Assembly: GCF_050920415.1 (NCBI RefSeq)
Contig: NZ_CP169309.1
From: Escherichia coli
GTDB taxonomy: Bacteria; Pseudomonadota; Gammaproteobacteria; Enterobacterales; Enterobacteriaceae
DNA length: 64,000 nt
Reading direction: 5' to 3' (one strand)
Under the pieces are notes generated by a model. It had not been told where the DNA came from and did not search any database. It saw only the letters and a program-made list of their open reading frames with translations. A program made the translations under genes and the position numbers. The first letter of the stretch is position 1. Each line of letters starts with the position of its first letter. Shown piece after piece: positions 3,190-34,992 of the stretch.

Positions 3190-4245
3190 TTAAGATTTTT
3201 TACCGTAAACGACACCGGAACGGCCTAACATGTCGCTGGTGATCTGTAAGCCTTCTGCTGACATGATGCGGAAGTTGTAGTTATCGGTAGGCATGAGGCG
3301 CGGTAGCGGAACTACACCAGTAGTCATACCGATCAGCGGGGTAATCACTGATTTCTGGCGCTGGTAAGCGATGAACTCGTTACCTTTCAGTGCGAAGGTC
3401 TGACGAATTTCACCAACCGGGATGTACGGTTTAATTACATCCAGGACGCGACCAACAACCGCACCATTAACGACGTGAGGCGCGGCAAGGTTAGCCATGA
3501 TTTCAGGGGATACCCACATAACATCGTATTTAGCTACGAAGTTGTTGCGGGCCAGAGTACCGAAAGCGCCAGTAGTAAAGAATGCGATAATTTCCTGGAA
3601 GGTCATCGTAGTGAGATCTTCATTGGTCATCTTTAACTGCTGGGTATTGCGGTGATTTTTGATACCCTGTGCTTTTTTGCCTTCAACGACGATACGGTCG
3701 CTCCCTTCAAGGTAGAAGCGAACACGTTCTTTGTTGAATTTTTTCAGTTTCAGGCGCTGGCTATCCAGAGCAAGGTCGACACCAACGGTGTTTAAACCTG
3801 CTGCGTGACGCCAGTTAACCCCGTAACCTGCCGTGAACATCGGAATCGGATCGCCATCGCTACCGTATTCAGTATGATCGAAGCCATGAGGGGCTTGACC
3901 ATCCATAGAAATGACGACTTCATCATTGATGTCACCTGCTACGCTGTACATTTTCAGTGTTTTACCGATTGGCAGTACAGTCTGCACCCCCATCAGGTCG
4001 TTTACGATCTCGATACCAATTTCTTCGGTGTTTAGTTCGATGATCTGGTTGTCAATTTCCTGCCAGAACTCACGGGCAAAACCGCCAACGGCGTTACATG
4101 CCAGCATTTCAGGGGTCATATTGGCACGGTTAGCAGCAATCATAGAATCATGCTGCTGATTAAAGATGTTACGTTGCGCCCACATTTCTTGCCAGTGACT
4201 TTGCATACGGGCGTTAGTAGCAAGGTTTTCCCTAGTAAAATACAT
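3190..4245 (-). CDS. major capsid protein
   Basis: 351-aa ORF downstream of scaffold/decoration-like genes and followed by a strong attenuating terminator. Confidence 0.5.
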   Translation of the reverse strand: MYFTRENLATNARMQSHWQEMWAQRNIFNQQHDSMIAANRANMTPEMLACNAVGGFAREFWQEIDNQIIELNTEEIGIEIVNDLMGVQTVLPIGKTLKMYSVAGDINDEVVISMDGQAPHGFDHTEYGSDGDPIPMFTAGYGVNWRHAAGLNTVGVDLALDSQRLKLKKFNKERVRFYLEGSDRIVVEGKKAQGIKNHRNTQQLKMTNEDLTTMTFQEIIAFFTTGAFGTLARNNFVAKYDVMWVSPEIMANLAAPHVVNGAVVGRVLDVIKPYIPVGEIRQTFALKGNEFIAYQRQKSVITPLIGMTTGVVPLPRLMPTDNYNFRIMSAEGLQITSDMLGRSGVVYGKKS

Positions 4246-4260
4246 TATGTATACCTCTCG

Positions 4261-5967: not shown

Positions 5968-6912
5968 TTACTCCCAATCTTCGCCATATTTAGCGTGCGC
6001 AACTTTATAGTTTTCTTGCGCCCGATTTAATATTCGTTCGTTTAATATGTTACCGTCTTCGTCAACTAATACGGTAATCGTGCTACATTTGCAGTTAATA
6101 GAATTTGGGGATCTGCTCCACCATTCGCGCTGCTCATCTATGGTGTATGTTTTCCCGTGCCGTTGCGCGTGCGATAGCCTGGTTGTCGGTGACAATGCCG
6201 AAATGTGCATTTGCATAGTGCGCAGATTAAATTCTTCTGTCGCCGCTTCTGCCTCATCCATACGCGCTGTGCGTAACGCTGTGCATATTTCAGTTCGGGC
6301 AATACGTTTGCATCTGTATAGCGGTAACTGCGTATCCTGATTCAATGTGCGCGCTATTTCCAGTGGATTTAAACCACGGGCCATGCCTTCAGTTAATCGG
6401 CGGGCCATATCCTTTTTTATCTGTGCGGTCAGACCGCGCATCTCTTCAAATACACGGGTACGCACCAGGGCAAGGCGTGTGCGGTAAGTTGTGCTGGATA
6501 GCACGGCGGATACATCAGGATAAGCGCTTGAATATGTGACAGACTGGTTAGCAAGGTTGGCGTATTCCTGCGCGGTCCCTCGCTGATATGCAACCTTCAC
6601 GTACTCCTGCCAAAACCAAAAACTTTCCGGGTCGGTTAGCTCGAATATCTCATCAATCATGTTGCTGGCATCCTCCAGCATGTCGTGCAATTCATCCATG
6701 TAAATCTGGAAGGTGTATTTCTTATTAACAGCCAGGCTATATTGTATTCTGTCCAGTATGGCGATATATGGATCGGCTATTTTCTTCAGGCAGGATTTAA
6801 AACGCTTAATAGCGCCCGACCGCAACTTACCTGTCATGGTCGGGTCTTCGGTGTTAGATGGCATTATCGCGGAGGGCGGTATTCTCCTGATTATTTTCTT
6901 CACCTTCATCAT
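5968..6912 (-). CDS. phage head morphogenesis protein (Mu F / SPP1 gp7-like)
   Basis: 314-aa ORF directly after the portal gene; true start possibly internal (table start overlaps the portal gene end). Confidence 0.4.
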   Translation of the reverse strand: MMKVKKIIRRIPPSAIMPSNTEDPTMTGKLRSGAIKRFKSCLKKIADPYIAILDRIQYSLAVNKKYTFQIYMDELHDMLEDASNMIDEIFELTDPESFWFWQEYVKVAYQRGTAQEYANLANQSVTYSSAYPDVSAVLSSTTYRTRLALVRTRVFEEMRGLTAQIKKDMARRLTEGMARGLNPLEIARTLNQDTQLPLYRCKRIARTEICTALRTARMDEAEAATEEFNLRTMQMHISALSPTTRLSHAQRHGKTYTIDEQREWWSRSPNSINCKCSTITVLVDEDGNILNERILNRAQENYKVAHAKYGEDWE

Positions 6913-8227
6913 CGTTTTCCTCGTCTTCCAGTTCTACTTCACTAGCTGGGCCATCGTATCCGGCAGCTTCGCGGATCTCATCGCCGCTAAATATTTCCTC
7001 ACCAGTAGCGAGACATGCCTGATTGATTTGCGCCATCTTGTGTGCCGCTTCCAGTAGTTCGGCTTTTGTCATAGCATTCAGGTCATCCCATAAAACTGAT
7101 ATATCGACTGGCATACTGATAAGGCGTAGATCTGCCATCTTGCGGAATAGTTCTTCAAGCTCGCCTCCGATTTCCTCACGACGGGTCATACAGCGATTAT
7201 TGAAGTAGCGGAGGTCTTCAGTTGATGCGCGTTCACCCTGCTGATTGCCAACCAGAATACGCGTTGGAATGTCGATACCAGCGGCGGCGGTTTGCAGGTT
7301 GACGTCATAGGTTGCAGATGGATCGGCTACGGCAGTGACCAGCGGGCTAACGGTAGCTCCCTGTAATGCCATCATCACATCATTACCTTTGTTTATATCC
7401 TCTGCCGCTTCATTGAATTTTTCGCGTAGCTCTGTAACGTCGCAACCGTATGTTGCAGCCAGAGAACGGAAATCAATCTCTTTGTCGAATGAGATAGCTA
7501 GTTGACGTGCGGCGTTTTTAAGGAATGACTCACCGCTACCACCTTCCACTTTCTCCAGCGAAACGAAAGCGTTATAGGATGGCTCAAGGAAAGCGATAGC
7601 ATCATCAGAATAGTCACCAAATATAAAGATCCGGTCTGGATGGATTTTCCTTGCTATGGTCTTATTGTTGATGCGTTCTTTGTATTCCCACCATGTCGGC
7701 AGGCCATAGTTTTCATTATCCGGGTTTTCTTCGAAGTCCTTCGGCGTCAGAGCGCCAGCCCACACAGGGGTGAATTTGGCAATGCCTGCACCTTTCGTCA
7801 CTGGCTTATCCCACGGCTGGCTATCTCTGACATGAATTAACAGGCCCGCATAACGACCGATGAGGCGGCGGCGATCACATTCAGCTATGACGCGCCAGAA
7901 TCGATTATCGAATCGTTTTTTGATTTCTCTTTCCCACGGCGTTTCCTTTTCTGCTTTCTCGTCTTCCGTGCCTTCAATCATCGCTGGCCTGGTGCGCCAA
8001 CACGTCGTGATAATCTTTTCAATAGCACCGTGAGCGATACCACCGCGACGATACAGCTTATAAAGATCATCATAGGTGATCTCTTCTTTGAATCCGTATT
8101 CACTCCAGGCGGCATCACGCTTTGCATCAATACCCATTGAGAAAGGATGCGCGGCGGCATAGCGTGCAAAGGCCACCTGACGTTGTGACAAGGCAGCATT
8201 AACCGCCAATTCTAAATTGGATGGCAT
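6854..8227 (-). CDS. phage portal protein
   Basis: ~457-aa ORF immediately downstream of terL; start chosen at MPSNLE with an AGGAG SD. Confidence 0.45.
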   Translation of the reverse strand: MPSNLELAVNAALSQRQVAFARYAAAHPFSMGIDAKRDAAWSEYGFKEEITYDDLYKLYRRGGIAHGAIEKIITTCWRTRPAMIEGTEDEKAEKETPWEREIKKRFDNRFWRVIAECDRRRLIGRYAGLLIHVRDSQPWDKPVTKGAGIAKFTPVWAGALTPKDFEENPDNENYGLPTWWEYKERINNKTIARKIHPDRIFIFGDYSDDAIAFLEPSYNAFVSLEKVEGGSGESFLKNAARQLAISFDKEIDFRSLAATYGCDVTELREKFNEAAEDINKGNDVMMALQGATVSPLVTAVADPSATYDVNLQTAAAGIDIPTRILVGNQQGERASTEDLRYFNNRCMTRREEIGGELEELFRKMADLRLISMPVDISVLWDDLNAMTKAELLEAAHKMAQINQACLATGEEIFSGDEIREAAGYDGPASEVELEDEENDDEGEENNQENTALRDNAI

Positions 8228-15733: not shown

Positions 15734-15774
15734 TTTTCTGCCCTCCGCATCGTTCTCTCTTCAGCTTCTTTATA

Positions 15775-15808
15775 ACAAAATGGCACTGCCGAAACAATGC
15801 CATTTTGT
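15775..15808. promoter_or_regulatory. inverted repeat ACAAAATGGCA-N12-TGCCATTTTGT (operator/promoter-like)
   Basis: Perfect 11-bp arms at 15775-15785 and 15798-15808; overlaps a TGTTATAAA extended -10-like element on the minus strand. Confidence 0.4.
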
Positions 15809-15815
15809 AAACTTT

Positions 15816-15828
15816 GGGGGGGGGGGGG
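15816..15828. repeat. homopolymeric G13 (C13 on the coding strand) tract
   Basis: 13 consecutive G at 15816-15828 in an intergenic region directly next to the inverted repeat. Confidence 0.9.
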
Positions 15829-21149: not shown

Positions 21150-21270
21150 AATGCTCTCTCCTTTTCAGGTGATTTCTACGCATTTCAGCGCTGCCGGATT
21201 TTTAAAGAGCATTTCGTTTGCTTGAAGTATACAAAATGGATGCACCTGAACAAGGCAAAAAGCGCCATTA

Positions 21271-21286
21271 TGTGACCAAAATCACA
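21271..21286. promoter_or_regulatory. CRP-like palindrome TGTGA-N6-TCACA
   Basis: TGTGACCAAAATCACA in the intergenic region upstream of ninF, 8 bp from a GCCATTTTGTAAACTTT element. Confidence 0.4.
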
Positions 21287-21308
21287 CAATGACGCCATTT
21301 TGTAAACT

Positions 21309-24782: not shown

Positions 24783-24863
24783 TTTTGCTTCCTCCGCACC
24801 GTAAACCTTTTGATTTCGGATTACAAAACGGATATGCGATTACAATACATAATGTATATTCAT

Positions 24864-27508: not shown

Positions 27509-28149
27509 TAACCCATCTCCCCGTTAAGCTCTGATTTTCTGATCTGGTATACGTCGCTCGCTTTCTGTCGTTGCTCTGAGTTTTCAGGTAATAACTTCCA
27601 GCATTTAGCAAAAATATCTTTAAGTGCTTTTTCGTCCTGCGCTTTCGCTGCCGCATCACAGAAACGTGCTAATACTTCATCAGGATTTGGCGGCGCTTTC
27701 TGCTGCTGCGGTTGTTGTTTTGGTGGGTTTTTCTGTTGTCGCGGCTGCTGGCCTGTCTGCTTCGCGTAAGCATCAGTATCAGGATCGCGAGCATCATCTA
27801 TACAGAATAAACCGTTCAAAGCATATTTCCGCGCGTAACTTGATGTTGCTCCTGTTAGCTGGCTGGCGTCCATACCCTTCTTGCTTTCTTCCTCCCTGGC
27901 ATAAGCAGTTACCGCTATTACGTCTTCACCGTCGCTTAGCGTCGCCGTAGCTTTCACATAATAGCGATTGCCGATCAGGACAATTTCATCACTAACAGTC
28001 AGCGTGATATTTTGAAGCAGTGGTTTAACCGCCTCTAAAATATCCTCCGCCGACCTGTAATTATACCCGCCAAAATTATTACGCTGATTTTTCGGCGCGT
28101 TCAGCGTTTGCTGAATCGTCCATAGTTTTTTATGTAACTCTGTTTTCAC
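27508..28149 (-). CDS. Erf-family single-strand annealing protein
   Basis: 213 aa; N-terminal LNAPKNQ...FGGYNYRSAEDILEAVKPLL resembles P22 Erf; followed by ssb. Confidence 0.55.
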   Translation of the reverse strand: MKTELHKKLWTIQQTLNAPKNQRNNFGGYNYRSAEDILEAVKPLLQNITLTVSDEIVLIGNRYYVKATATLSDGEDVIAVTAYAREEESKKGMDASQLTGATSSYARKYALNGLFCIDDARDPDTDAYAKQTGQQPRQQKNPPKQQPQQQKAPPNPDEVLARFCDAAAKAQDEKALKDIFAKCWKLLPENSEQRQKASDVYQIRKSELNGEMG

Positions 28150-28298
28150 CCTTTAATCTCCTTCGCTGTTAACACTACGTATAAGGCTTTATTCGCGGCG
28201 CTCCACATTTCGGCATCGTGAAGCATTTCCGCTACCGCCAGTTTGAATTGAAGCGCCCGAATAACCATAATGTCACCTCCGGATGTTTACATTTTGTA

Positions 28299-28589
28299 TT
28301 AATGGTAGCGGACTTTATCCAGGGGTTTTTCCCCTAAATGGCGTGGTTGCGTTGCGTGGTAGTAGCTGCCGCTTTCATTTTCCGTATACCATTTTACTGG
28401 TCCTTTGCGACGTTCTTTAATGCTATTTGGTTTGCATCTTTCCTCGTTTGCAAATCGAATAGCTTTATCCACATTGTCTGTTTTATTGATTGCAGGTGAT
28501 GATTTTCTTTCGTTTTCTCTTTTTATCCTTCTGCGTTCCCTGGCATTCAGTTTACTGTCACATTTGCCATACATAATTGTAACGCTCAT
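28299..28589 (-). CDS. N-like transcription antitermination protein
   Basis: 96 aa with an arginine-rich motif NARERRRIKRENERK near the N-terminus; first gene after pL; boxA/boxB nut site in its leader. Confidence 0.5.
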   Translation of the reverse strand: MSVTIMYGKCDSKLNARERRRIKRENERKSSPAINKTDNVDKAIRFANEERCKPNSIKERRKGPVKWYTENESGSYYHATQPRHLGEKPLDKVRYH

Positions 28590-28936: not shown

Positions 28937-28965
28937 AATATACGCCCCGTAAAACACCGAGTCAA
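28937..28965 (-). promoter_or_regulatory. pL-like sigma-70 promoter
   Basis: Minus strand TTGACT, 17-bp spacer, TATATT; two CATTTTGTAT motif copies immediately upstream. Confidence 0.45.
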
Positions 28966-29057
28966 TCCATTTTGTATACTTTTTTAAAACATTTTGTATG
29001 CTATTGATATTTAAGCAATAAATAACGCTTCCTGTTTACGTTTTGGTGTTTTCCGGG

Positions 29058-29082
29058 CAAAGAAAAGCCGCCATCCGGCGGC
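29058..29082 (-). terminator. rho-independent terminator downstream of the repressor gene
   Basis: Minus strand GCCGCC-GGAT-GGCGGC hairpin followed by TTTTCTTT, 7 nt after the CI stop. Confidence 0.6.
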
Positions 29083-29088
29083 TAATGT

Positions 29089-29736
29089 TTATGGCAGGTT
29101 TACGATCTTCGCATCAACCACCACACCTATGATTTTTGATTCTGGATTCATAGGGATTGGCGGATACAGAGGGTTGAGCGAACGTAAAAGCCTTTGACCT
29201 CCATCAATAATCAACTGTTTAAACGTCGGTATCTGCCCTTCCTCAAGCTGGGCTATAACCAGTTTGCCGTCAATAGCTGGCGCGTGCGGATCGACAAGTA
29301 TCATCGTCCCCGCTGGTATACTCAATCCTTGCGGCGCGTTCATTGATTCGCCTTTAGCTACCAGCCAATAACTATCATCTGAACAAATAACGCTAGTCGT
29401 AACGTGTGGTAATGTTGATCGCCTTGTATCATCCATATTGTTTACTGTGTCCTTCCAGTCAACAACCGGGTAACTGCCTAAATCACGCTGCGGCGCTCCC
29501 GGTAACGTGTTAGAAACAGAATCATCAATGACCATTCCATCATGTGTAACAGTGAATTGCCGACGACCAAGCGCCCGCATAATCCGCGCAATATCTTCAA
29601 GATTTGGCTCGCGGCGACCGTTAAGCCAGTGTGACAGGCCGCCTTTAGTTATCCCCATGAGATCCGCGAGTGAATCCTGGCTCATGCCTTGCGCTCGCAT
29701 GAGCTGCTTTGCTAAGTCATACCATTTTGTTTTCAT
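29089..29736 (-). CDS. CI-type prophage repressor (HTH + S24 LexA-like peptidase domain)
   Basis: 215 aa; N-terminal XRE-type HTH (QDSLADLMGITKGGLSHWLNGRR), C-terminal AKGESM serine and downstream Lys of S24 self-cleaving repressors. Confidence 0.75.
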   Translation of the reverse strand: MKTKWYDLAKQLMRAQGMSQDSLADLMGITKGGLSHWLNGRREPNLEDIARIMRALGRRQFTVTHDGMVIDDSVSNTLPGAPQRDLGSYPVVDWKDTVNNMDDTRRSTLPHVTTSVICSDDSYWLVAKGESMNAPQGLSIPAGTMILVDPHAPAIDGKLVIAQLEEGQIPTFKQLIIDGGQRLLRSLNPLYPPIPMNPESKIIGVVVDAKIVNLP

Positions 29737-29795
29737 GTCGCTACCCTATAACCTCAAAAAGTTTGATACAAGTCACAAAATGTATTTTTCAAGTC

Positions 29796-29823
29796 TTGAC
29801 CTAAAAACGCCATTCTGTAAACT
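29796..29823 (+). promoter_or_regulatory. pR-like sigma-70 promoter overlapping an operator-like motif
   Basis: TTGACC, 16-bp spacer, TAAACT; GCCATTCTGTAAACTT overlaps the spacer and -10. Confidence 0.45.
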
Positions 29824-30299: not shown

Positions 30300-31400
30300 A
30301 TGAAGTGGTTTAAGCATGATAGCGATGCGAACCGCGATGAAAAGCTCCAAAACGTTTTGCTTGATTATGGTCTGGAAGGATACGGGCTTTACTGGTATTG
30401 CATCGAGTTAATAGCTTATGAAGTAGATCAACATAATCTGACATTCGAACTAAAACACGATGCGAGAATTATTGCCCGTAACGTCGGATCAACTCCGAAA
30501 CGTGTAGAAGAAATGATGAGATACTTCATCGAAGTTGGCTTGTTCGATTGCTCGCATGGCGTTGTAAGATGCCTGTCGTTAGCAAAAAGACTTGATCAAT
30601 CAATGGCTTCATCAAAAAGCGAATTTAGGGAAGCAATTAAAAGGCTAAACGTCAAAAAAAATAAAAAGTTAGATAATCCTTTAGTGGAAGTAAATAATTC
30701 ACCAGATACAGAAAAAGAAAAAGAAAAACCATGGCACAACCATGATGCAGCCATGGCACAACCATGTCATAGCCATGGATTAGAAGTAGAAGTAGAAGAA
30801 GAAATAGAAAAAGATATATACACTTCGTGTATTAGCGAAAATGGACAAAAAACGGTCAATCAGGACGGTGTAAGCGAAGCTGCCTTGCGTTGCCTGGCTT
30901 TCTACAACGAAAAGGCAGGATGCAAGTGTCGTGATACTAAGCCATTCATCGAACTACTGACAGAAACAAAAACACGTAAGGCATATACGGAGGAAGAGAT
31001 CACATTAGTAATTGAGTGGGCTTTAACCCAATGGCGTAGCCGTGGTGGAGTACCTAAGCCTATCAACATTTGCCGGGTAACTAAGTTTGATGGGTATCTG
31101 GCTGATGCTGAACAATGGCGCAAGTTATCAGCTACTGTAAACGCTGCCGACGTGGTGGGAGAATTTAACAGCACGTTTGACGGCCTGTTACCACCTGCCG
31201 AACTGGATCGGGATCTTGAACGCAAGATCTATGCGTTCACTGACTACCTGAAAGACAAAAGTATTAACGGCTTTGTCGCCTACTTCGAAACGTTCAAAAA
31301 CACGGCTTCAGATTTTTACTTCGGCAATGGCTTCACTGCGACACTTGATTTTCTGCTTAAACCAAAAACGCTACGTGATACACGCGCTGGCGTTCTTTGA
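30300..31400 (+). CDS. phage replication initiation / replisome organiser-like protein
   Basis: 366 aa; N-terminal MKWFKHDSDANRDEKL segment typical of phage replisome organisers; acidic repeat-containing middle; position upstream of the helicase. Confidence 0.4.
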   Translation: MKWFKHDSDANRDEKLQNVLLDYGLEGYGLYWYCIELIAYEVDQHNLTFELKHDARIIARNVGSTPKRVEEMMRYFIEVGLFDCSHGVVRCLSLAKRLDQSMASSKSEFREAIKRLNVKKNKKLDNPLVEVNNSPDTEKEKEKPWHNHDAAMAQPCHSHGLEVEVEEEIEKDIYTSCISENGQKTVNQDGVSEAALRCLAFYNEKAGCKCRDTKPFIELLTETKTRKAYTEEEITLVIEWALTQWRSRGGVPKPINICRVTKFDGYLADAEQWRKLSATVNAADVVGEFNSTFDGLLPPAELDRDLERKIYAFTDYLKDKSINGFVAYFETFKNTASDFYFGNGFTATLDFLLKPKTLRDTRAGVL

Positions 31401-31533: not shown

Positions 31534-31635
31534 ATGGACGGTAAACACGTTTTCGCCCTGGCCTTTGCCATCGCTGCGGCAATCGCTGTTAACGTCGCTT
31601 TGTTCGGCGGTTTGTACCTTCTCGTTAATCCATAA
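31534..31635 (+). CDS. small hydrophobic peptide (33 aa, MDGKHVFALAFAIAAAIAVNVALFGGLYLLVNP)
   Basis: GAGAGGA SD 7 nt upstream; single TM helix; in the intergenic region after the initiator gene. Confidence 0.4.
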   Translation: MDGKHVFALAFAIAAAIAVNVALFGGLYLLVNP

Positions 31636-31796
31636 CCTACCTACCAGTCTGTAAATCGAAAATTAGCCACCTGATAGCGCCTCTGGCGCAAAAAAGACAC
31701 TGCACCCTTACAAGTGGGTTACGCGGTGGAATTTTGCGTTGTAGCGCGTTTTACGGAAAATAAATATACATTCTGTAAACATGAGGAAGTAACATT

Positions 31797-32915
31797 ATGT
31801 CGCAAAGAAAGATCAGCGATGAGGAATTAATCGCTGAGTACAAGAAGGGGAAAACTTACAAGCAAATAGCCGAAGAATATGGAATGGCAAAACGCAACGT
31901 CGAACGACTGGGCGCGCGGTTGGCGAAACGCGGTTTAATATCCACGCGTCGCGCGCCGGGTTTTGGCGTCAATGGTGAGTCTTTGCTCGTTGATAAAGAT
32001 GGCAATGTAATCATGCGCTGGATTAAAACAGCCCGTGACCGTGATGAAATGGAAAGGCTAATGCAAGCGGCTTGCGATGCTTTCACGGAAGAAATACCCC
32101 GAGCGGAGGCCGTGCCAGTGCCGGAAATTGATTTTCAAAAAAGTCTGGCCCTTTATCCGGTATTCGATTTGCATATAGGGGCGCTTGCTCATAAAGCTGA
32201 GTGCGGCGAAAGCTACGACACCGGGATCGCTGAACGCGTGCTAAATGATTTCTTTGACTACGCGGTAGGCGCTGCGCCAATGTCTGAAAAGGCTGTTTTG
32301 CTTCTCGGCGGTGATGTGCTTCACACTGACGGCCTGTTACCAGTGACGCCATCAAGTAATCACGTTTTAGATTGTGATTCACGCTACGCAAAACTGGTTT
32401 ATGTGGCGATCCGGTCGGTCCGGCGTGCGGTCGGGAAGATGTTACTAAATCATAAGGATGTCGAGATCCAGGTATTATCCGGTAATCACGACCAATCAGG
32501 TATGATCTGGCTACGTGCTGCGCTTGCGGCTTTTTACGAAGATGAGCCGCGTGTGACTGTTGACGTGTCACCTGCCATTGTCCACCACACACAGTACGGC
32601 AAAACATTCCTTGCTTACCACCACGGGCACACTATCAAAAAGCCAGAAAATTTACTTTCTGCCTGCGTTTCTGACTGGCGGGAGGATTTCGGCAAGTCGT
32701 CGGCGGTTTACGCTCATTGCGGGCACTGGCATCATCAACGGCTGATTGAATCATCGTTAGGCGTTGTCGAGTATCACGGCACATTAGCTGGCAAAGACGC
32801 TTATTCAACGAATGGCGGCTGGCGGTCGCGGAGGCTGGCGGCGGTAATAATTTACAGTCCTGATCACGGGGAGATCGGGCGCTTTGTTTATTACCCTGAA
32901 TATTCCATTTTGTAA
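31797..32915 (+). CDS. HTH-domain / calcineurin-like metallophosphoesterase fusion protein
   Basis: N-terminal HTH (KTYKQIAEEYGMAKRNVERL); C-terminal phosphoesterase motifs DLH, GGDVLH, GNHD, GHWHH; GAGGAAG SD. Confidence 0.5.
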   Translation: MSQRKISDEELIAEYKKGKTYKQIAEEYGMAKRNVERLGARLAKRGLISTRRAPGFGVNGESLLVDKDGNVIMRWIKTARDRDEMERLMQAACDAFTEEIPRAEAVPVPEIDFQKSLALYPVFDLHIGALAHKAECGESYDTGIAERVLNDFFDYAVGAAPMSEKAVLLLGGDVLHTDGLLPVTPSSNHVLDCDSRYAKLVYVAIRSVRRAVGKMLLNHKDVEIQVLSGNHDQSGMIWLRAALAAFYEDEPRVTVDVSPAIVHHTQYGKTFLAYHHGHTIKKPENLLSACVSDWREDFGKSSAVYAHCGHWHHQRLIESSLGVVEYHGTLAGKDAYSTNGGWRSRRLAAVIIYSPDHGEIGRFVYYPEYSIL

Positions 32916-32933
32916 ACCTGAGGAAATACCATA

Positions 32934-34355
32934 ATGGTGACTGAGCAAGTAAACTCATTACGCCAGGAACGGGAAGCTGCTGTGATAGGTGGACTCCTGT
33001 TAGGCGGGCTTACTCCTAACGCGCAAGATGTTCTTGCTACGCTCGATCCTGAAGTCTTCACCATTCCACTATATAAACGAGCGTTTGAGATCATCCGGGC
33101 GCAAGCCAGAAACAGAAACCTTATTGACGCGCTGATGGTCGGTGATGAAATCGGTAACGAAAATTTTGTCCCGCTAATGCAAACTGCGCGATCGTGTCCA
33201 TCTGCCGCCAACCTGAAGGGGTACGCCGCGCTATTGCAGGAGGAATATCAGCGGCGGCAAATGCTGGAACTAATGGACGATATACGCTACAACCTGGAAA
33301 CCGGGACACTTGAATCTGTCAGGGAGACGATGAAATATTTTGATTCCCGGTATTCAAAATTAAAGGTAACAAAAGATCAGATTATCCCGGTGCTGTTGCG
33401 CGATGCTGTCCAGGAATACACGGAAGTGCTAAGTAAACGCATGGAGTGTGGCGTGAACTCTGACAACATCAAAACAGGGATTGACCCACTCGACGAAATG
33501 TTAGGCGGCATTAACGCTACTGATCTGGTGCTTATAGCTGGACGCCCAGGGTCTGGTAAATCTGCGTTGGCGTTGGCAATTGCCCGCGCGGCGGCTGAAC
33601 GTCCATACCCTGGCAGCGAAGGTCAACGGGTCGGCGTTTTGCTGTTCACGCTTGAAATGTCGCTCGATCAGATGACTGAACGAGCTATCGCTGGCGCTGG
33701 GAATTTATCAACGGATTGCCTACGTAATCCGGTAAAACTGGATGACGAAGGATGGGCGCACGTTGCCCAGGGGATGAGCGCCCTTGCCGATCTCGATGTG
33801 TGGATTGTTGACGCATCGCAGTTAACGGTTGAGGAAATACGCGCCACCGTCGAACGGATGAAACAGGACCATCCTAATCTTGGAATGGTGATGATTGACT
33901 ACATCGGGTTAATGAAACTGGCTAAGGCCGAACGTCATGATCTCGCCGTAGGGCAATTGTCGTGGTCATTGAAAATGATGGCGAAAGAGTTGCGCGTGCC
34001 AGTGGCGGCGCTGGCGCAATTATCCCGCCGCGTTGAAGAACGACCGAACAAGCGCCCGAACAATTCTGATCTGCGTGATTCCGGTAATCTTGAACAAGAC
34101 GCAGACCGGATCATCATGGTCTACCGCGACGGCTACTACAACGAACAATCAGTTGCCCGCGAATACATGGAGATCATCGTTTCAAAAAACCGTCACGGGA
34201 AAACGGGGACTGTTTACCAGCGGTTTGACGATAACGGCAACATCATTCCATGCGACCAGGCTCGCGCGGCGTCCGCCTGCATCCAGTCAATGCAACAACG
34301 TCCGGCAGCAAGCCGATTCTCCCCACGAAATAACCAGAATAACTCATCCTTTTAA
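32934..34355 (+). CDS. replicative DNA helicase (DnaB family)
   Basis: 473 aa; Walker A GRPGSGKSALAL, Walker B VMIDYIGLM, C-terminal LAQLSR...RPNNSDLRDSG...ADRIIMVYRD motifs. Confidence 0.8.
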   Translation: MVTEQVNSLRQEREAAVIGGLLLGGLTPNAQDVLATLDPEVFTIPLYKRAFEIIRAQARNRNLIDALMVGDEIGNENFVPLMQTARSCPSAANLKGYAALLQEEYQRRQMLELMDDIRYNLETGTLESVRETMKYFDSRYSKLKVTKDQIIPVLLRDAVQEYTEVLSKRMECGVNSDNIKTGIDPLDEMLGGINATDLVLIAGRPGSGKSALALAIARAAAERPYPGSEGQRVGVLLFTLEMSLDQMTERAIAGAGNLSTDCLRNPVKLDDEGWAHVAQGMSALADLDVWIVDASQLTVEEIRATVERMKQDHPNLGMVMIDYIGLMKLAKAERHDLAVGQLSWSLKMMAKELRVPVAALAQLSRRVEERPNKRPNNSDLRDSGNLEQDADRIIMVYRDGYYNEQSVAREYMEIIVSKNRHGKTGTVYQRFDDNGNIIPCDQARAASACIQSMQQRPAASRFSPRNNQNNSSF

Positions 34356-34434: not shown

Positions 34435-34992
34435 ATGAGCATTGAACTTGAAACAAAAGTTATCAATATCCTTGAACTGGACGGCATCGCAACAATGCAC
34501 CAGCTACGCCAGAAAACCGGATTATCAGCGGAATATGACGAAGCCGGATGTTTGCCTGAGACAATTAAACACTTGATTGATACTGGTATTGTCGAGCGTG
34601 TATATACATATTTCGGACCGCGCCGCAGATTATTGGGGTATCGAATTAAATATTTGTATGCACAACGTCGTGATCGTGTGGCGGCGTTATTTAGTGACTA
34701 CAGCGTTAAGAAGCGTATGCGTGACATTAGCGCGGAAACTGGTATCCCGTGGAATTACCTGTCGCGCACGCTGCGTTTAATGGTACTTGATGAAACGCTT
34801 TGCATAGACACCAATAAACACGGCCTTAACTTTTACTCACTGTTTAAACCTGGTCGCTTTGGTCACGCTAATGATCTCGCGTTTGATTTTGACAGCCGCC
34901 TGAATGAATACCGGAAAAATAACGGCCTGTTACCGGATAAACCAGTATTTGAGATCGAAAAACTTAACGGTGAAACGGGGTTAGAATTATGA
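34435..34992 (+). CDS. hypothetical protein (N-terminal winged-helix-like)
   Basis: About 185 aa starting MSIELETK; unknown function. Confidence 0.35.
   Translation: MSIELETKVINILELDGIATMHQLRQKTGLSAEYDEAGCLPETIKHLIDTGIVERVYTYFGPRRRLLGYRIKYLYAQRRDRVAALFSDYSVKKRMRDISAETGIPWNYLSRTLRLMVLDETLCIDTNKHGLNFYSLFKPGRFGHANDLAFDFDSRLNEYRKNNGLLPDKPVFEIEKLNGETGLEL

Follow-up and report, generated by a model that had tools for sequence, protein, structure and literature searches.

A pseudo-palindromic box before the ribosome-binding sites of three early genes is a candidate repressor operator in an mEpimmI-group prophage of Escherichia coli

The window analyzed here, a 64,000-nt stretch of an Escherichia coli genome (RefSeq assembly GCF_050920415.1, contig NZ_CP169309.1), holds an mEp021-like prophage of the mEpimmI group. 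Phages of this group were first described in 2025 and are reported to be as common as lambdoid phages in one collection of human-faecal coliphage isolates. Rep021 confers immunity and a pRep021 expression plasmid exists, while the operators of the group are undefined (PMC11893012). Four genes of the prophage are central to this study:

28146-28268, minus strand: 40-aa kil-like gene (mEp021_18), directly upstream of the erf recombinase gene; Lambda_Kil match with E = 5e-5, under the curated cut-off.
29089-29736, minus strand: lambda-CI-like immunity repressor gene (HTH_3 and peptidase S24), whose product is proposed to bind the boxes described below.
31797-32915, plus strand: 372-aa HTH and metallophosphoesterase gene, homologue of mEp021 gp11.
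32934-34355, plus strand: 473-aa DnaB-type replicative helicase gene (Pfam DnaB_C, E = 1e-75; DnaB, 9e-12).

The immunity repressor is similar to the lambda repressor 3bdn (E = 3e-19). The label "HTH-phosphoesterase" given to the 372-aa protein by the first-pass annotation is reasonable and was confirmed in part: the metallophosphoesterase motifs DLH, GDVLH, GNHD and GHWHH are visible in the sequence, but the sole Pfam match, HTH_28, is sub-threshold. Homologues of the protein bear the names phosphoesterase or DNA repair exonuclease, and sigma70_r4/HTH_23 matches occur in them.

The first-pass annotation had also reported near-identical translation-initiation regions before the phosphoesterase and helicase genes, and these are real. 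Both strings were recovered, copy 1 at 31769-31799 (plus strand) and copy 2 at 32905/32906-32936 (plus strand), and 26 of 31 positions are identical without gaps when 31769-31799 is set against 32906-32936. A degenerate 23-mer fitting both copies matched twice in the window and never in 100 shuffles. When the 115 Shine-Dalgarno (SD)-bearing ORF starts of the window were compared as 6,555 pairs of start regions, the two copies ranked first, sharing 23 of 28 upstream bases; the mean was 7.9 (sd 2.5), and the runner-up pair shared 19.

These copies belong to a set of three paralogous cassettes, each adjacent to a gene start. Tying the element to two adjacent genes was thus incomplete, as the same cassette precedes the kil-like gene in the opposite operon; it occurs before these three genes only. 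Each cassette consists of a 17-bp AT-rich pseudo-palindrome of the form (R)TWTAC-N5-GTAAAC (the box), which ends 16 nt upstream of the ATG, followed by an SD and ACAT(T/A)ATG:

31764-31780, plus strand: Box 1, before the phosphoesterase gene, ATATAC-ATTCT-GTAAAC; holds the left part of copy 1.
31783-31799, plus strand: phosphoesterase start, with SD GAGGAAG (31783-31789), spacer and ACATTATG containing the ATG (31797-31799).
32901-32917, plus strand: Box 2, before the helicase gene, TATTCC-ATTTT-GTAAAC; good right arm, degenerate left arm.
32920-32936, plus strand: helicase start, with SD GAGGAAA (32920-32926), spacer and CCATAATG containing the ATG (32934-32936).
28266-28301, minus strand: third cassette, before the kil-like gene, with box TAATAC-AAAAT-GTAAAC (28301 to 28285), SD GGAGG (28280 to 28276) and ACATTATG containing the ATG (28268 to 28266).

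In Box 1, one arm matches at 5/6 positions and the other at 6/6. The left arm of Box 2 is degenerate because it encodes the final codons of the phosphoesterase (Y-S-I-L-stop); the stop codon itself is the TAA within TGTAAAC of copy 2 (32913-32915), which the first reading had missed. The third cassette appears as a 34-nt inverted match, 79% complementary to 31766-31799. Each of the three boxes either occupies the gap that separates the upstream stop codon from the SD or overlaps that stop codon; they lie 0.7 kb from the immunity region on the left and 2.0 and 3.1 kb from it on the right. They are co-oriented with their own genes, an orientation that has little meaning for a pseudo-palindrome. 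A candidate fourth copy before erf was dropped, being a palindrome inside the kil coding sequence that is broken by synonymous changes in relatives.

Conservation was assessed in a family set of 48 members, comprising 43 close relatives, mEp021 and four more diverged members. All three cassettes are retained in every one of the 48, in non-coding sequence and in coding sequence of two different frames alike. The helicase box encodes the phosphoesterase C-terminus YSIL-stop, or a different one, YKM-stop, in L172; elsewhere it is read in another frame as the end of an inserted HNH gene, or is non-coding. The left flank of the phosphoesterase box comes in at least six unrelated contexts, all joining at (A/G)TATAC. 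Retention of the box through changing reading frames, C-termini and left flanks indicates that selection acts on the nucleotides of the cassette. The cassette is absent from phosphoesterase homologues in lytic phages and from the P22-type helicase, and is thus inherited separately from the genes. Within the boxes, the arms are conserved and the AT-rich centre is variable, even flipped (TTC/AAA/TTT), with 30 distinct variants of Box 1. In L175/L176 the box is the perfect palindrome GTTTAC-ATTCC-GTAAAC. The box-to-ATG distance is 16 nt in nearly all of the 130+ copies, though the kil SD has shifted by 2-3 nt, and all 57 distinct variants have C at -6. An IMG/VR scan with the 14-mer CCATTTTGTAAACT gave mostly random matches and was useful for two family genomes only; species-representative genomes scanned with the helicase alignment yielded nothing.

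The sequence of the box recurs in the window. The core CA-N4-GTAWAC occurs 11 times vs 3.2 expected, always in prophage regulatory DNA, both early promoters included, and GTWTAC-N5-GTAWAC with up to two mismatches occurs 19 times vs 7.3 expected, at the 5-nt spacer only. CCATTTTGTA is the commonest non-homopolymer 10-mer in the prophage. The proposal that the two copies and the operator-like sites form one motif family is borne out: the helicase copy matches the sites at 15800 and 21295 at 13/13 bases and that at 29810, on the early rightward -10, at 12/13. In most relatives, the 15-mer TTCCATTTTGTAAAC is common to the helicase box and the site over the rightward -10 (O_D1, below). Copies of the promoter type occur in both orientations (15800, 21295 and 28967 on the plus strand vs the minus-strand operon).

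Lambda-CI-like repressors bind 17-bp pseudo-symmetric operators as dimers. An external position weight matrix (PWM) was built solely on OR/OL sites, 9-15 in number, taken from three unrelated prophages whose CI repressors are homologous. These CI homologues have the same recognition helix, and each of the three cI-cro regions holds three 17-bp sites of the form WATAC-N5-GTATW. On its source loci the PWM recovered the expected OL clusters and nothing else; embedded intra-operon sites were not found in that scan of the three model prophages. Applied to the 63,984 positions of the window, the PWM gave the kil box 16.5 (rank 2-3; family median 16.6), the phosphoesterase box 14.3 (rank 4-5; family median 14.6) and the helicase box 9.6 (rank ~19), a moderate match only. 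In relatives with an HNH gene inserted upstream of the helicase, the box is AAAATACATTTTGTAAAC and scores up to 16.6. Six window sites score at least 14 vs 0.7 in shuffles, and sites on both early promoters were also picked. Arm preference differs, as the external model prefers ATAC whereas the commonest arm of the family is GTAAAC/GTTTAC. The operator-type sites outside the cassettes are as follows:

29771-29823, plus strand: early rightward promoter TTGACC-16-TAAACT (29796-29823), conserved, with two operator-type sites.
29771-29787, plus strand: O_D2, AGTCACAAAATGTATTT; external PWM 13.6.
29806-29822, plus strand: O_D1, AACGCCATTCTGTAAAC, overlying the spacer and -10; external PWM 1.6 in this phage.
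28937-29001, minus strand: early leftward promoter TTGACT-17-TATATT (28965 to 28937) with three operator-type sites, 28938-28954, 28963-28979 and 28985-29001 (scores 8.4, 15.4 and 11.5; centre-to-centre 25 and 22 bp).
21226-21307: second nut-linked promoter region, with minus-strand promoter TTGTTC-16-TATACT (21253 to 21226), kept in relatives; operator-type site at 21227-21243 on the promoter and plus-strand copy CCATTTTGTAAAC at 21295-21307.
15769-15812: putative late/lysis promoter region, conserved in relatives, with two inverted CCATTTTGT copies and plus-strand CCATTTTGTAAAC at 15800-15812.
24819-24859: intergenic operator-type pair, GATTACAAAACGGATAT and CAATACATAATGTATAT, 24 bp apart (scores 12.5 and 19.8).
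4238-4254: top-scoring operator-type palindrome of the window, AAATACATTATGTATAC (score 20.4); its centre falls on the start codon of a minus-strand late gene of 351 aa.

By eye, 14/17 bases of O_D2 agree with operator O2 of the Tatumella and Enterobacter prophages. A tandem operator pair, formed by each box and a start-codon site 24 bp away, was considered and rejected; start-centred 17-mers score nothing and CA[TG][TA]ATG is unenriched.

The match in motif family together with that to the external operator model makes shared transcription-level control by one regulator plausible. The transcriptional part of the coordinated control originally suggested for the two genes is retained on this ground; the translational part is unsupported. 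In our judgement the chances are a little better than even that the boxes are operators for the phage's lambda-CI-type repressor, embedded in intercistronic gaps. Repressor binding to the boxes, and its effect, we infer from sequence. The functional core would be the 17-bp pseudo-palindrome, read by the CI-type repressor and by any Cro-like partner using the same sites. Site clusters at the two early promoters would block initiation, and the three extra copies would fill the sole free DNA within the two early operons, the gap from stop codon to SD. In a lysogen, repressor on the boxes could act as a second lock on kil, phosphoesterase and helicase, either by obstructing escaping or read-through polymerases or by looping of the distal sites to the promoters, stabilising repressor there. 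The SD, ACAT(T/A)ATG and the fixed 16-nt distance would then reflect common descent of the entire intercistronic spacer. Several features sit less easily with operators, among them the moderate score of the helicase box, the poor score of O_D1 and the differing arm preference. The embedded sites are single rather than in cooperative clusters, and roadblocking is not, to our knowledge, an established mechanism for lambda-type repressors. As the model prophages are without embedded sites, there is no precedent inside the repressor family. The strict box-to-ATG distance, kept despite the shift of the kil SD, would be explained more naturally by a role in translation initiation. Given that each site directly adjoins the SD and keeps a constant 16 nt to the ATG, the same element could additionally act in the mRNA.

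A purely mRNA-level function, in which the cassette is a translation-initiation module shared by the three early genes, we regard as unlikely. Such a module could be an AU-rich enhancer, a site recognised by a translational regulator, or a weak helix, CA-WWWW-GU/ACA-WW-AUG, masking the start codon. The three strong copies are indeed all on the sense strand directly before an SD, and the invariant C at -6 and the near-constant box-to-ATG distance would fit; start-associated sequences of cluster K mycobacteriophages offer a precedent (PMC3203893). Folding of the three regions was no better than that of shuffles (z = -0.9, +0.9 and 0.06). The box-to-start helix pairs in 80.7% of cells vs 25-64% in slid controls, and two of its pairs change on both sides, but the helix is trivial and its covariation score was equalled by a slid control; the apparent pairing arises because both partners copy the same CA-WWW-TG palindrome. 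A local hairpin pairs in just 61.7% of cells over the 57 variants and has no convincing covariation. Complementarity to 16S rRNA was no better than in shuffles, in an analysis that recovered the T7 epsilon control, and Rfam held no match for the cassette regions. CA[TG][TA]ATG is not enriched at gene starts generally (7 observed vs 4.2 expected). A linear RNA motif would not tolerate a centre that flips between A-rich and U-rich, and the same word lies in both orientations and in untranscribed promoter DNA. The earlier idea that the core acts at the RNA level thus finds no backing in folding, covariation, rRNA complementarity or Rfam. Antisense RNA from 28985-29092 against the cassettes was dropped as a candidate, with duplex-energy ranks of 25, 43 and 142 of 148; the energies looked unreliable.

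It is also rather improbable that the spacers have no present regulatory role and are old duplicates of one intercistronic joint. They would then persist through their SD and start context and through ~30 bp of border homology that lets Erf-type recombination swap gene cassettes. Mosaic junctions do coincide exactly with the left box edges, although they are expected there anyway, since the upstream gene ends at that point. The slot upstream of the phosphoesterase gene varies in content (Zn-ribbon, pRha/ANT and other genes), at least four contexts have an HNH insertion directly before the helicase box, and a phosphoesterase allele has been replaced by a 60%-identical one with the box kept. Similarity between copies is stable across the family at ~22/34. 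There is, on the other hand, no sign of gene conversion, as identity within genomes equals identity between genomes (p = 0.56). Duplication by itself would leave unexplained the match to an operator model derived from other prophages, the same core on four promoter regions, and the conserved arms with a drifting centre.

The first-pass annotation had further suggested that the core may mark internal promoters. Repressor-controlled weak internal promoters, with the box serving as operator and -10 in the manner of the dispersed C1 operators of phage P1, are very unlikely. The 13-mer supplies the -10 at two promoters (TAAACT, 29818-29823; TATACT, 21231 to 21226), and the boxes differ from these only at the last base. 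That base leaves the hexamer as TAAACA/TAAACC, however, and TAnnnT is found in none of the 57 distinct family variants. A sigma-70 consensus scan found no promoter at the phosphoesterase or helicase site, and the best -35 candidates seen on inspection match at 3/6 positions at most. None of the host transcription-factor sites considered (IHF, Fis, LexA, TyrR, CpxR, EvgA and GntR type) fits the cassette. Chance likeness of two AT-rich ribosome-binding regions has practically no probability left and is refuted by the pair ranking, the shuffles and the three copies kept across 48 genomes, even though GTAAAC followed by an SD and ATG is also found once in host DNA (40233) and a host 17-mer gets 15.2 in the family-trained model.

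For mEpimmI phages, the reading of the boxes as operators supplies a testable operator consensus, (R)TWTAC-N5-GTAWA(Y), and a map of ~12 candidate sites. Should repressor occupy the embedded sites, operon interiors as well as promoters would come under the control of a classical lambda-type repressor, an idea that so far rests mainly on unusual monomeric mycobacteriophage repressors, and the silencing of kil and the replicative helicase in the prophage despite read-through transcription would be explained. We offer only tentatively the wider proposal that a prevalent gut coliphage family has, besides the promoter operators of its lambda-CI-type repressor, placed further ones at the ribosome-binding sites of genes for host killing and replication, and silences inside operons, in a stoperator-like manner that arose independently and with an ordinary dimeric repressor. 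For annotation, the cassettes caution that near-identity of ribosome-binding regions need not mark a translational signal but can come from DNA operators.

Among known systems, the boxes resemble OR1-3 and OL1-3 of lambda in their 17-bp length, their pseudo-symmetry and the unequal quality of their halves, one good and one poorer, and the repressor (HTH_3 and S24) is related to lambda CI. Clusters of sites 22-25 bp apart lie on the early promoters of this phage and of the three prophages with homologous repressors. In the window, promoter-like clustering at ~24 bp is displayed by sites 28938-29001 and 24819-24859 and not by the boxes, which are single, promoterless and inside operons just before ribosome-binding sites; we know of no lambda-type system that places operators in this position. 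In P1, one immunity repressor, C1, acts on many scattered operators and controls, for example, the DnaB-type helicase ban and a kil/replication unit. The P1 operators are asymmetric 17-mers that each overlap their own promoter, whereas the boxes are unrelated in sequence and have no detectable promoter. Lambda OL-OR looping and the FL/FR sites of coliphage 186 illustrate extra sites, hundreds to thousands of bp from promoters, that act via looping. The kb-scale distances are alike; the placement at ribosome-binding sites has no counterpart there, and looping is hypothetical in this prophage.

The SAS/ESAS elements of cluster K mycobacteriophages are family-specific repeats upstream of the start codons of a subset of non-structural genes, with unproven function; ESAS is an imperfect inverted repeat with a variable spacer and is not RNA-hairpin-like (PMC3203893). 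The cassette is likewise family-specific, located at the starts of a gene subset and independent of gene family. SAS is a 13-bp element, 5'-GGGATAGGAGCCC, that contains the SD and lies 3-7 bp from the start, whereas the box precedes the SD and ends 16 nt short of the ATG, is unrelated in sequence, and shares its word with promoters. In L5 and other cluster A mycobacteriophages, repressor sites termed stoperators are found at the early promoter and in short intra-operon gaps near stop and start codons, and it is proposed that they shut down transcription already under way (PMC9283540). The boxes share with them the location in short intergenic gaps inside operons. The L5 sites are asymmetric 13-mers, numbering more than 20; their orientation strictly follows that of transcription, and the repressor that binds them is a monomer equipped with a special second DNA-binding domain. 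The sites described here are pseudo-palindromic, comprise 3-5 embedded copies with promoter copies in both orientations, and would be served by a lambda-CI-like repressor.

Two look-alike stretches, each terminating in the ATG of its gene, are present at 31769-31799 (copy 1) and 32905-32936 (copy 2), as the first-pass annotation had reported. Aligned without gaps, they are identical at 26 of 31 positions. A degenerate 23-mer spanning both copies had two matches in the window and none in 100 shuffles. Among the 6,555 pairs formed by 115 ORF starts with an SD sequence, this pair was the most similar, with 23 of 28 upstream bases identical compared with 19 for the runner-up and an all-pair mean of 7.9 (sd 2.5). 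A third copy, TAATACAAAATGTAAACATCCGGAGGTGACATTATG, lies on the minus strand before a kil-like gene and is identical to copy 1 at 27 of 34 positions. Each copy is a cassette composed of a 17-bp AT-rich pseudo-palindrome (the box), an SD and a start region. The genes concerned and their settings are as follows.

28146-28268, minus strand: kil-like gene (40 aa), between the N-like gene and erf
31797-32915, plus strand: phosphoesterase-type gene (372 aa), upstream of the helicase gene
32934-34355, plus strand: DnaB-type helicase gene (473 aa), downstream of the phosphoesterase gene
Leftward order: cI (29736->29089), terminator, N-like gene, 40-aa kil-like gene, erf, ssb and, further on, Q, lysis and structural genes
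Rightward order: two replication genes, phosphoesterase gene, helicase gene, NinB and, further on, the integrase gene

The 372-aa product matched only an HTH in Pfam, below threshold; metallophosphoesterase signature motifs are visible in its sequence, and homologues bear the annotation phosphoesterase or DNA repair exonuclease. Its stop codon is the TAA within copy 2. The kil-like product has a weak Lambda_Kil match (E=5e-5, under the Pfam cut-off), and its gene occupies the position of kil in the lambda leftward operon. The window contains a prophage of the mEpimmI group, 91.6% identical to Escherichia phage MagusPhagus across 6 kb and ~87% identical to mEp021 and five sisters. A 2025 description of the group characterises its members as temperate, non-lambdoid, Nus-dependent coliphages sharing one immunity, and the operators recognised by the mEp021 repressor, Rep021, were left undefined by the authors (PMC11893012).

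In 43 close IMG/VR relatives and mEp021, the early-region genes carrying the cassette are exactly the kil-like, phosphoesterase and helicase genes. The cassette is also kept in four more diverged family members; phosphoesterase proteins of diverged members are 80%, 71% and 60% identical to that of the window. All 57 distinct variants align without gaps, with invariant positions at C7, G13 and A17 of the box, G24 of the SD, C31 (position -6) and the ATG. The end of GTAAAC lies 16 nt from the ATG in nearly all copies, although the kil SD is 2-3 nt further downstream. On its left side, the phosphoesterase box adjoins at least six unrelated contexts, all joining at (A/G)TATAC. The helicase box is kept as phosphoesterase coding sequence (Y-S-I-L-stop, or Y-K-M-stop in the relative L172), as the C-terminal end of an HNH endonuclease insert, read in another frame, and as non-coding DNA; once released from phosphoesterase coding, its left arm is improved to AATAC. 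Judged from these comparisons of sequence, the cassette is under nucleotide-level selection and is family-specific. It is absent from the phosphoesterase homologues of lytic T1-like and Dhillonvirus phages and from the P22-type gene 12 helicase (57% identical). Copies within one genome were not more alike than copies between genomes (p = 0.56); the resemblance is thus old and stably maintained, and recent gene conversion between copies was rejected on the same comparison.

The gaps before these genes also differ in content between relatives. In several prophages and in mEp021, mEp010 and mEp515, the phosphoesterase gene is separated from the helicase gene by a free-standing HNH homing-endonuclease gene (L001, an mEp021 sequence, 6818-7321, gp10; relatives L175, 8118-8645, and L176, 8115-8660). 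The inserts have at least four different upstream junctions, all ending just before the helicase box; the window (32880-32933) is without one. Directly upstream of the phosphoesterase box is a variable accessory-gene slot (31700-31768 in the window), which in relatives holds a Zn-ribbon protein, pRha/ANT-type antirepressor-like genes or small genes (L001 4140-5664, L172 5165-5968, L173 5285-5986, L175/L176 5697-6967). These inserts invariably begin after TTGCGTTGTAG(C/A)G, and only a remnant (ACGGA...AATAA) appears to be left in the window. We regard the role of the gaps as recombination joints for accessory and homing endonuclease genes as a consequence of their position, not their function. 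The stretch from the replication gene to the phosphoesterase gene contains a 33-aa hydrophobic small ORF (MDGKHVFALAFAIAAAIAVNVALFGGLYLLVNP, 31535-31636), kept in mEp021, L172 and L176, and after it a weaker core copy (CCAGTCTGTAAAT, 31644-31656). The replication-initiator gene contains two tandem 22-bp repeats (CCATGGCACAACCATG..., 30729-30772) and a nearby palindrome (ATATACACTTCGTGTAT, 30816-30832), which by analogy with lambda O are probably origin iterons. It also shares an exact 16-nt repeat, TGACGGCCTGTTACCA (31178-31193), with the phosphoesterase gene (32327-32342), and a third, 14/16 copy is found at 34920-34935.

Across variants, the box has a left arm TATAC and a right arm GTAAAC, GTATAC or GTTAAC around a 5-nt centre that varies and even flips (ATTCT, AAAAT, ATTTT, AATTT, ATTCC); L175 and L176 carry the perfect palindrome GTTTAC-ATTCC-GTAAAC. 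GTWTAC-N5-GTAWAC with up to two mismatches was observed 19 times (7.3 expected), and no excess of this pairing was seen at 4- or 6-nt spacers. The core CA-N4-GTAWAC was observed 11 times (3.2 expected), every time in the prophage and at a regulatory position, and CCATTTTGTA is, homopolymers aside, the top over-represented 10-mer of the prophage. The copies away from gene starts are at promoters.

Rightward early promoter, TTGACC-16-TAAACT (29796-29823): copy covering its spacer and -10
Second nut-linked promoter, TTGTTC-16-TATACT (21253->21226): copy covering its spacer and -10
Leftward early promoter, TTGACT-17-TATATT (28965->28937): copy adjoining the upstream side of its -35
Putative late promoter near 15770: copy adjoining the upstream side of its -35

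The 15-mer TTCCATTTTGTAAAC is common to the rightward-promoter -10 site and the helicase box in most relatives. Several further elements were observed in these regions. A perfect CRP consensus, TGTGACCAAAATCACA (21271-21286), and a CRP-like site kept in relatives, TTTGATACAAGTCACA (29762-29777), precede the predicted starts from the two nut-linked promoters by ~60 bp, each at 31-32 nt from the operator-type 13-mer; the two modules of promoter and nut appear to be paralogues, possibly subject to catabolite control. In the putative late-promoter region, the CCATTTTGTAAACTTT site is directly followed by a run of 13 G (15816-15828; GCGGGG in a relative), possibly an artefact of sequencing or a tract prone to slippage. 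The interval from the cI terminator to the leftward promoter contains CACCAAAACGTAAACAGGAAG (29034-29045, minus strand), which resembles a box and SD with no gene behind it; its GTAAAC part is kept in relatives and its SD-like part is not. Relatives carry an extra copy, GCCATTTTGTAAACTGGTTATAAT (L003, an mEp021 sequence, 42049; L081 1399; L088 814), adjoining a perfect TATAAT, between divergent genes and upstream of a minor tail gene; this copy has no counterpart in the window.

The repressor is lambda-CI-like in both domains. Three prophages, from Citrobacter, Enterobacter and Tatumella and unrelated in other respects, encode homologues 38-51% identical to it; of these, that of Tatumella is a classical lambdoid (cro, cII, O, DnaB). 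The recognition helix is nearly unchanged in the three (ITKGxxSHWLNxRREP), and each cI-cro intergenic region holds three 17-bp sites, (R)WATAC-N5-GTATW(Y). A weight matrix was built solely from comparison-prophage sites (window scores are for the 15-site version; the 9-site version was similar). In the comparison loci it recovered the expected second cluster (beside N or after cI, 25-bp spacing) and nothing else, so it can be treated as a valid model of the operator. Training sites score 13.5-18.2; of 63,984 window positions, the kil box ranks third (16.5) and the phosphoesterase box fifth (14.3). With the 9-site matrix, six window sites reached a score of at least 14, compared with 0.7 in shuffles. 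Across the family, the kil boxes have a median score of 16.6, the phosphoesterase boxes 14.6 and the helicase boxes 10.4; in the window the helicase box is the weakest of the three, and in relatives with the HNH gene upstream it scores up to 16.6. The matrix identified the following additional sites.

28938, 28963 and 28985: three-site cluster at the leftward promoter, spacing 25 and 22 bp
29771-29787: site between cI and the rightward promoter, by eye like the middle operator of two comparison prophages
21227: site on the second nut-linked promoter
24819-24859: two sites (24819 and 24843), 24 bp apart, intergenic among delayed-early genes
4238-4254: palindrome with the start codon of a late gene (351 aa) at its centre

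The last two entries are the window's best matches to the external model, which suggests that repressor targets exist far outside the immunity region.

The initial link of both gene-start regions to an operator-like motif was thus borne out by the core common to the promoter sites and by the external matrix. We judge it somewhat more likely than not that the boxes are CI-type repressor operators in the intercistronic gaps of two early operons. Bound repressor could halt polymerases that escape or read through; alternatively, it might serve as a distal looping partner of the promoter clusters, which lie 0.7 kb away on one side and 2.0 and 3.1 kb away on the other. The main observation ill-explained by operators is the fixed 16-nt distance from box to ATG, and this keeps alive an RNA-level role of the cassette as a rival or additional function. 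Such a role, proposed in the first-pass annotation, lacks support from folding of the three regions (no better than shuffles), 16S rRNA complementarity (none above shuffles) or Rfam (no match). A box-to-start helix pairs in 80.7% of cells, because box and start region are both CA-WWW-TG palindromes, and was rejected when its covariation score was equalled by a slid control; a local hairpin pairs in only 61.7%. Internal promoters, also proposed, fared no better: a promoter scan gave no match at the boxes, and in no variant does the -10-like hexamer form TAnnnT. A candidate antisense RNA lacked support.

The analysis yields an operator map, open to testing, for a prevalent and recently described family of phages, and the boxes are possibly a second, independent case of intra-operon silencing. 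The boxes are like lambda operators in form and likely binder, but overlap with a promoter, a defining feature of the lambda sites, is lacking. They are like L5 stoperators in placement and proposed effect, but differ in symmetry, number, orientation rule and repressor type. The dispersed C1 operators of P1 are similar in distribution and in the genes controlled, although the boxes are without promoters. Finally, the boxes differ in sequence and position from the start-associated sequences of cluster K, but are likewise family-specific and start-adjacent.
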